Origin: Escherichia coli
GTDB lineage: Bacteria; Pseudomonadota; Gammaproteobacteria; Enterobacterales; Enterobacteriaceae
Direction: 5' to 3' (one strand)
NCBI RefSeq assembly: GCF_003334255.1
Contig: NZ_QOWU01000012.1
DNA: 64,000 nucleotides
Of this stretch, positions 43,108 to 43,442 are shown piece by piece (positions within the stretch are counted from its first letter, which is position 1; each line of letters opens with the position of its first letter). A program made the translations under genes and the position numbers. Below the pieces are notes generated by a model. That model did not search any database, was not told the DNA's origin, and saw only the letters and a list, made by a program, of their open reading frames with translations.

Positions 43108-43183
43108 GATCGTCTCTGGTTCAGGAAGTATTACAGGCAGTGTTGTGCAAATTTTGCGGATTATCAAATCCTTTTCTTCAACG

Positions 43184-43372
43184 CTATGTCATCGATCTTG
43201 TATCACTTTTTTTGCCGGAAGTTGTTTGCATTTTATTAGTTGGATAGGGTTTGTGGATTTTTGCTGGCTGACGGGCAAATAAAGTTTGTTTAATGGTTTG
43301 CTTATCTGCCAGTTGATTAATCACATGGCGGGCTATCTGACCGCCAGCACCAAGAATCAGTACCTTTTTCAT
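43184..43372 (-). pseudogene. Remnant encoding only the N-terminal Rossmann motif of an NAD(P)-binding protein (ymjC/ymjD position)
   Basis: ORF track 62 aa; MKKVLILGAGGQIARHVINQLAD is a GxGxxG dinucleotide-binding start followed by nonsense tail. Confidence 0.45.
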
Positions 43373-43442
43373 GAAAATTATCCCAGATTATTGGCAGCAA
43401 TATGCCAGGCCATATCACTATTGCGGATTTGAATATGTTTCA

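Follow-up and report, generated by a model that had tools for sequence, protein, structure and literature searches.

The mpaA-ycjY gap and its surroundings

The window, by which we mean the whole 64,000-nucleotide stretch of Escherichia coli DNA analysed here, contains the genes tpx (40814-41320, minus strand) and ycjG (41439-42404, plus strand), followed by mpaA, which encodes murein tripeptide amidase (42379-43107, minus strand). Beyond mpaA lies a 335-bp gap (43108-43442), then ycjY for an alpha/beta hydrolase (43443-44363, minus strand), pgrR (also ycjZ) for a LysR-type regulator divergent from ycjY (44501-45400, plus strand; PMC5934670), and mppA, which begins at 45737 on the plus strand. 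The gene order is based on the RefSeq annotation of the identical sequence of E. coli ATCC 8739 together with the ORF list. Window positions 42900-43700 are 100% identical to ATCC 8739 and are matched in 5418 of the 5426 complete E. coli genomes to which all genome counts below refer. The convergent mpaA and ycjG overlap at their 3' ends by 26 nt (42379-42404), as they do in the outgroup loci described below.

The gap contains two minus-strand ORFs. The sequence-only reading had found a single 62-codon frame here; this ORF (43184-43372) is ymjC (b4525), and a second, 21-codon ORF (43378-43443), which that reading had missed, is ymjD (b4673). In E. coli K-12 MG1655 (NC_000913.3), both are annotated, as a 60-aa ymjC and a 21-aa ymjD, and over window positions 43098-43460 the two strains differ at 4 of 363 nt (~99% identity) and have the same deletion junctions. 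The peptides differ by one substitution each outside the ymjC tail, K3 in the window versus N3 in K-12 for YmjC and A12 versus D12 for YmjD. We also considered whether the gap encodes a non-coding RNA and rejected this. Scanning 42300-45800 against Rfam (E <= 1) gave no family in the gap; the lone match, RAGATH-10 inside pgrR, scored 24 bits, below its gathering score of 41.2, and we take it as a chance match. As set out below, we hold with high confidence that this stretch belongs to a decayed operon and carries the scars of two deletions. It is the known pair of ymjC/ymjD remnants and not a new kind of element.

The two ORFs are remnants of an SDR gene and a hydrolase gene

The ymjC ORF begins MKKVLILGAGGQIARHV and ends SMT. 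Its residues 1-46 (43235-43372) agree at 45 of 46 positions with residues 1-46 of the 212-aa SDR family oxidoreductase WP_000800177.1, and beyond this point the two proteins diverge completely. The 212-aa protein matches Pfam NAD_binding_10 with E = 3.4e-54 over residues 8-189 (model positions 1-184) and, more weakly, NmrA (4e-10). The window ORF has the glycine-rich dinucleotide-binding motif LILGAGGQIARH; the complete Rossmann-type domain of ~184 model positions is absent from it, as it keeps 46 of 212 residues and approximately the first 39 of the 184 NAD_binding_10 positions. The retained part amounts to about one fifth of the NAD-binding domain, and the fragment alone matches no NCBIfam family. 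The remaining codons, 47-62, are derived from former intergenic DNA. The earlier proposal that the ORF preserves the N-terminal end of a gene for a Rossmann-fold NAD(P)-binding protein and then enters unrelated sequence is thus borne out.

The full-length 212-aa coding sequence is found between mpaA and ycjY, at exactly this position, in two E. coli loci, L002 and L003, and the interior of the gene, which is the part deleted from the window, is present in 2901 of the 5426 genomes. The comparison with genomes carrying a full-length NmrA-like gene, which the sequence-only reading had called for, therefore gives a clear answer: the Rossmann-like start of the ORF is not a coincidence.

The shorter ORF is what is left of a 310-aa alpha/beta-hydrolase gene. 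The start of ymjD overlaps the ycjY stop codon, and its translation is MKHIQIRNSDMAWHIAANNLG, while the hydrolase of L003 begins MKHIQIRNSDMAWHIAAN and ends HLG; ymjD consists of the first 18 hydrolase codons fused in frame to the last few. The window and K-12 lack L003 positions 3666-4532, which is 867 bp or exactly 289 codons, and the in-frame deletion (deletion 2) has a blunt junction between 43388 and 43389 that is present in 3856 genomes. The intact hydrolase gene lies between ycjY and the SDR gene in L003, IAI1 and O157:H7 (for example O157 Sakai), and its interior is found in 1272 of 5426 genomes. The protein is 42% identical to YcjY and matches Pfam Peptidase_S15, Abhydrolase_1 and DLH.

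The site thus has three structural alleles: the remnant-only allele (the window, ATCC 8739 and K-12), one with the full SDR gene (L002, allele B, as in strains EC958 and eco-241), and one with both the full SDR gene and the second hydrolase gene (L003, allele C). The full operon of ycjY, hydrolase and SDR is found in ~1272 genomes (23%), and both genes are lost, as in the window, in 2293 (42%). The intermediate allele, with the hydrolase lost and the SDR intact, accounts for ~1560-1630 genomes (~30%), a count obtained by subtraction on the assumption that the alleles are nested rather than by direct cross-tabulation. The whole module described in the next section is absent from 174 genomes (3%), and ~50-120 genomes have other rearrangements. 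A smaller difference was also observed between the hydrolase stop and the SDR start, where the full-operon allele has 12 extra nucleotides (ATGAGAAATATT) flanked by two ATGA repeats (L003 3638-3654 versus L002 3638-3645); their absence from both shorter alleles is consistent with a small slippage deletion.

A four-gene module was inserted between mpaA and mppA

Inside the 62-codon ORF lies one copy of the motif GGAAGTTGTTTGCATTT (43217-43233), as noted earlier, and one other exact copy of this 17-mer is found at 45663-45679, 2446 bp away. The 17-mer alone is weakly significant, as 3 of 100 shuffled sequences contained at least two matches with up to three mismatches. It is the core of a direct repeat of 37/38 nt with 89% identity between a left copy of 38 nt (43196-43233, plus strand) and a right copy of 37 nt (45643-45679, plus strand). 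The 3' 17-mer is identical in the two copies, and about 5 of some 20 nt have changed in the 5' half of the right one. In L003, the repeat spacing is 3990 bp.

The meaning of the repeat became clear from loci where mpaA and mppA are direct neighbours. In Citrobacter (L085-L087), Pseudocitrobacter (L088 and L089) and Enterobacter (L090 and L094), the two genes are divergent and 176-184 bp apart, and the same arrangement is found in E. coli SWHEFF_68 (L091, 6209-6390). When window positions 43093-43233 and 45680-45751 are joined, the resulting 213 nt align end to end with the outgroup intergenic regions, each of which has one copy of the motif region, such as GGAAGTTAATTGCATTT in Citrobacter. The empty-site E. 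coli sequence corresponds exactly to the left part plus the right part, and its single repeat copy equals the left copy of the window except for one extra T in a T run of the latter. Because these alignments are colinear and the outgroups have a single copy, the repeat is real and represents the duplicated target of an insertion. They show that a ~3.95-kb module, pgrR-ycjY-hydrolase-SDR, was inserted in the mpaA/mppA intergenic region, with the motif as the duplicated target at its ends. Window positions 43108-43195 and 45680-45736 are therefore the ancestral mpaA-proximal and mppA-proximal parts of the former divergent intergenic region, and ycjY is the surviving first gene of the module operon.

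The mpaA-proximal part contains a 15-mer, GCAGTGTTGTGCAAA (43137-43151), upstream of mpaA. Across E. coli, Citrobacter, Pseudocitrobacter and Enterobacter this 15-mer does not vary, although the intergenic sequence around it does; we regard it as a candidate promoter element or regulatory site of mpaA. At the other end of the module, a promoter-like site facing mppA (45671-45700, plus strand; TTTGCA-18-AATAAT) has its -35 element in the 17-mer and its -10 element in the conserved ACAAATAAT block, which may explain the conservation of the 3' half of the repeat. The 5' half of the right copy would have diverged either because an old duplication drifted neutrally or because Campbell-type integration introduced a copy from the donor. 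The 174 empty-site genomes, which include ST648 strains with mpaA and mppA directly adjacent and no pgrR/ycjY module, either never had the module or lost it by recombination between the 37-nt repeats.

A Pseudocitrobacter contig contains LysR, YcjY, hydrolase and SDR genes in the same order in a different genomic neighbourhood, with 87, 92, 85 and 83% amino acid identity, respectively, and the nucleotide homology extends from just past the SDR stop to the LysR stop. This colinear module indicates that the complete form is the ancestral one. In a scan of genome contigs with the SDR protein, no Escherichia sequence was among the best 80 matches; the nearest was a Pseudocitrobacter MAG (83%), followed by assorted Proteobacteria at <=69%. 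A metagenome contig (L093), whose MpaA seemed 90% identical, was tried as a further outgroup and set aside, as it proved to be ordinary E. coli that carries the same allele, apart from a small indel.

The annotation of the module comprises pgrR, the two hydrolases and the SDR only, and no recombinase, transposase, IS or terminal inverted repeat was found in or next to it. We rejected the idea that the motif is a dispersed repeat or the end of a mobile element, since there are two copies only in the window, the module has no terminal inverted repeats, and the deleted spacer occurs as a single copy in E. coli genomes. Between pgrR and mppA of strain SRY149, PGAP annotates a 75-nt pseudogene, 'epoxyqueuosine reductase QueH, partial' (L003 6642-6716; window 45498-45572). 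The 41-aa window ORF matching this fragment hits no NCBIfam model even at E <= 10, and the fragment could be a further cargo-gene remnant or an annotation artefact.

The SDR gene was truncated by an illegitimate deletion

The sequence-only reading had suspected a deletion or recombination event in the gap, and a deletion did occur here (deletion 1). Window positions 42900-43234 align with L002 2501-2834, and the window from 43235 onward aligns with L002 from 3500 onward. Relative to allele B, 665 bp are lost (L002 2834/2835-3498/3499), namely the 3' 500 nt of the 639-nt SDR gene and ~165 nt of spacer (L002 2835-2998) toward the upstream region of mpaA. The junction between 43234 and 43235 reads GCATTTT followed by ATTAGTTGG, with one T common to both sides. 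This microhomology of 1 nt indicates an illegitimate and not a repeat-mediated deletion. Of the 5426 genomes, 2293 contain the full length of a 71-nt probe that spans the junction.

The same SDR gene was truncated independently in E. coli DETEC-P881 (L092, 2600-3550), by a 569-bp deletion with its left end at the base of the terminator hairpin described below; the SDR gene has therefore been lost more than once. In the same strain, a 1.2-kb deletion has taken the 5' end of ycjY as well as that of pgrR. A promoter-like site that spans the deletion 1 junction and faces mpaA (43257-43230, minus strand; TCCACA-16-TAAAAT, 9/12) would be confined to the deleted allele. We set aside the possibility of a junction-created promoter, as the region contains 8 such sites compared with 5.5 +/- 2.0 in shuffled sequences and the site cannot be distinguished from background.

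On its left side, deletion 1 breaks 0-1 nt from where the left repeat copy ends, at the boundary of the insert. With breakpoints spread uniformly over the dispensable spacer of ~165 nt, such a coincidence would be expected about 1 time in 100, and one could suppose that the old insertion boundary is a recombinogenic site, such as an att-like remnant or an element end, that directed the left end of the deletion. We consider this improbable. The module has no IS, integrase gene or terminal inverted repeat in or near it, the spacer is single-copy in E. coli genomes, and the DETEC-P881 truncation has another left end, beside the hairpin. In addition, the coincidence was noticed after the fact, and we treat it as chance.

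The truncated ORF might also be kept by selection as a genuine small protein gene for a mini NAD(P)H-binding YmjC. It has an open frame with an ATG, YmjC and YmjD are annotated as ordinary coding sequences in the K-12 RefSeq record and by PGAP in many genomes, so that translation of small peptides is possible, and the ORF lies inside a transcribed unit according to PMC5934670. The composition of the ORF makes this reading very unlikely. The small portion of the SDR that it retains (46 of 212 residues, ~39 of 184 domain positions) matches no family alone, and the same gene was truncated elsewhere in DETEC-P881. Its tail of former intergenic DNA is also variable: the T run at 43207-43213, inside the left repeat copy, has seven T in the window and six in K-12, allele B and the empty-site allele, and this 1-nt change shifts the frame, giving a 62-aa product ending GKKSDTRSMT in the window and a 60-aa product ending GKKVIQDR in K-12. 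Judged from these differing ends, the tail is evidently under no constraint. From general knowledge of the fold and the coverage of NAD_binding_10, we infer that the ymjC product is not an enzyme, since 46 residues should be unable to bind NAD(P)H or to catalyse a reaction. With a stump too short for the domain, no family match and no Rfam match, the most likely present role of the region is that of a passive transcribed spacer only.

The junction sequence refutes an origin of deletion 1 by recombination between the two GGAAGTTGTTTGCATTT copies, as the sequence-only reading had suggested. The motif does end 1 nt from the deletion junction; however, both copies are still present in the window, the junction has 1 nt in common only, and the deleted segment (L002 2835-3499) runs from the left copy to a point in the SDR gene without the motif, the third copy that such recombination would need at ~3480-3499 being absent. 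The two copies flank the far older module insertion, and their recombination would remove the whole module and yield the empty mpaA/mppA site seen in 174 genomes, not a truncated SDR gene. Finally, the notion that the short form came first and that a full-length SDR gene was gained later by insertion is hardly credible. No single allele is commoner than the short form (2293 of 5426 genomes); against this notion, the complete module has a colinear counterpart in Pseudocitrobacter at 83-92% amino acid identity, the short ORF ends in sequence that lies ~165 nt beyond the gene in the long allele, and an insertion would need to restore the 212-aa frame exactly.

Loss of a predicted terminator upstream of mpaA

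In addition to most of the SDR gene, the illegitimate deletion removed a predicted terminator. At 20 nt past the SDR stop (L002 2979-2955, minus strand), an 11-pair stem with 5 G-C pairs and a 3-nt loop is followed by the tail TTTATTAAAC. The predicted local fold has an energy of -16.5 kcal/mol (z = -2.49), a moderate advantage over shuffled sequences, 4 of 200 of which fold as well, and its U tract is weak, with an interruption that leaves 5 T in 8. The hairpin lies within the deleted segment; alleles B and C have it, and the window, ATCC 8739 and K-12 do not. In the window, no minus-strand terminator-like site was found between ycjY and mpaA.

These observations can be related to published data on K-12. 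A genomic SELEX site of PgrR is reported in the ycjY/ycjZ spacer and ycjY-ymjDC-mpaA is listed in the curated K-12 regulon (PMC5934670), and a constitutive RpoD (sigma-70) promoter is listed for ycjY-ymjDC (PMC3946193). Deletion 1 would thus have removed the operon terminator and coupled mpaA to the PgrR-controlled ycjY promoter, because transcription from this repressed promoter may read through into mpaA where the hairpin is deleted. It is possible, and we propose it tentatively, that PgrR control of mpaA is an allele-specific rewiring and not ancestral. According to this proposal, pgrR would be the private regulator of the acquired hydrolase/SDR operon, mpaA would have joined its regulon only via the 665-bp deletion (~42% of sequenced E. 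coli, including K-12), and elsewhere, including the empty-site genera, mpaA would be PgrR-independent.

Discussion

The locus has a stepwise history. A four-gene module, with pgrR divergent from a ycjY-hydrolase-SDR operon, inserted between mpaA and mppA and left the 37/38-nt repeat. In the lineage of the window, an in-frame deletion of 867 bp then took nearly all of the second hydrolase gene and left the 21-codon ymjD, after which a 665-bp deletion with 1 nt of microhomology cut off the 3' 500 nt of the SDR gene with ~165 nt of spacer, leaving the 62-codon ymjC. The loss of the predicted terminator with the spacer may have let transcription from the ycjY promoter read into mpaA, which lies downstream of the scarred region.

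As a sequence feature, the gap is routine. It is ordinary gene decay, and both ymjC and ymjD are already annotated in K-12 (b4525 and b4673). In the older EcoGene notes, ymjC is reportedly listed as an N-terminal pseudogene fragment, and the entry for ymjD calls it a deletion-fusion remnant. What we add is the history of one insertion and two nested deletions, and the suggestion that the PgrR regulon of K-12 is in part specific to one allele.

The decay of this locus matters for annotation and for the use of K-12 as a reference. PGAP labels the 60-62-aa stump as an intact coding sequence for an 'NAD(P)H-binding protein' or 'NAD-dependent dehydratase'. In a pan-genome study, 'ymjC' was associated with acid resistance as a putative oxidoreductase (PMC9602453); the presence/absence signal in that study probably reflects the structural alleles of one locus. 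The K-12 ycjY-ymjDC-mpaA operon, which is part of the PgrR 'peptidoglycan recycling' regulon, is suggested here to be a product of deletion, and more than half of E. coli strains do not have that deletion. Extrapolation from K-12 should therefore allow for the allele difference at the ycjY-mpaA locus.

The closest known counterpart of the window feature is the ymjC/ymjD pair of K-12 MG1655, which is at the same locus with the same two junctions and differs by the T7/T6 run, the ORF length and one residue per peptide. Among the NAD(P)H-binding atypical SDR and NmrA-like proteins (PF13460 NAD_binding_10 and PF05368 NmrA), the parent gene is a clear member; in contrast, ymjC keeps the N-terminal beta-strand with the glycine-rich GAGGQIA motif, and it cannot form the domain and works like nothing in the family. 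The inserted module resembles intergenic islets flanked by target direct repeats that arise by Campbell-type or duplicative insertion, having the same elements, namely a ~3.95-kb module, a 37/38-nt repeat and single-copy empty sites. It differs from such islets in that no integrase, transposase or tRNA gene is found here, and in that the right copy is diverged in its 5' half, suggesting an old event or a donor-derived copy. A 37-nt repeat is also far longer than the usual target duplications of transposons. Lastly, the locus is comparable to operon fusion by deletion of an intercistronic terminator, as the lost segment contains the sole terminator-like hairpin between the module operon and mpaA. 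The ycjY-ymjDC-mpaA genes are reported as one unit in K-12 (PMC5934670), which is consistent with such a fusion, and the read-through that we propose for one allele type and not for the other would follow from the presence or absence of this hairpin.
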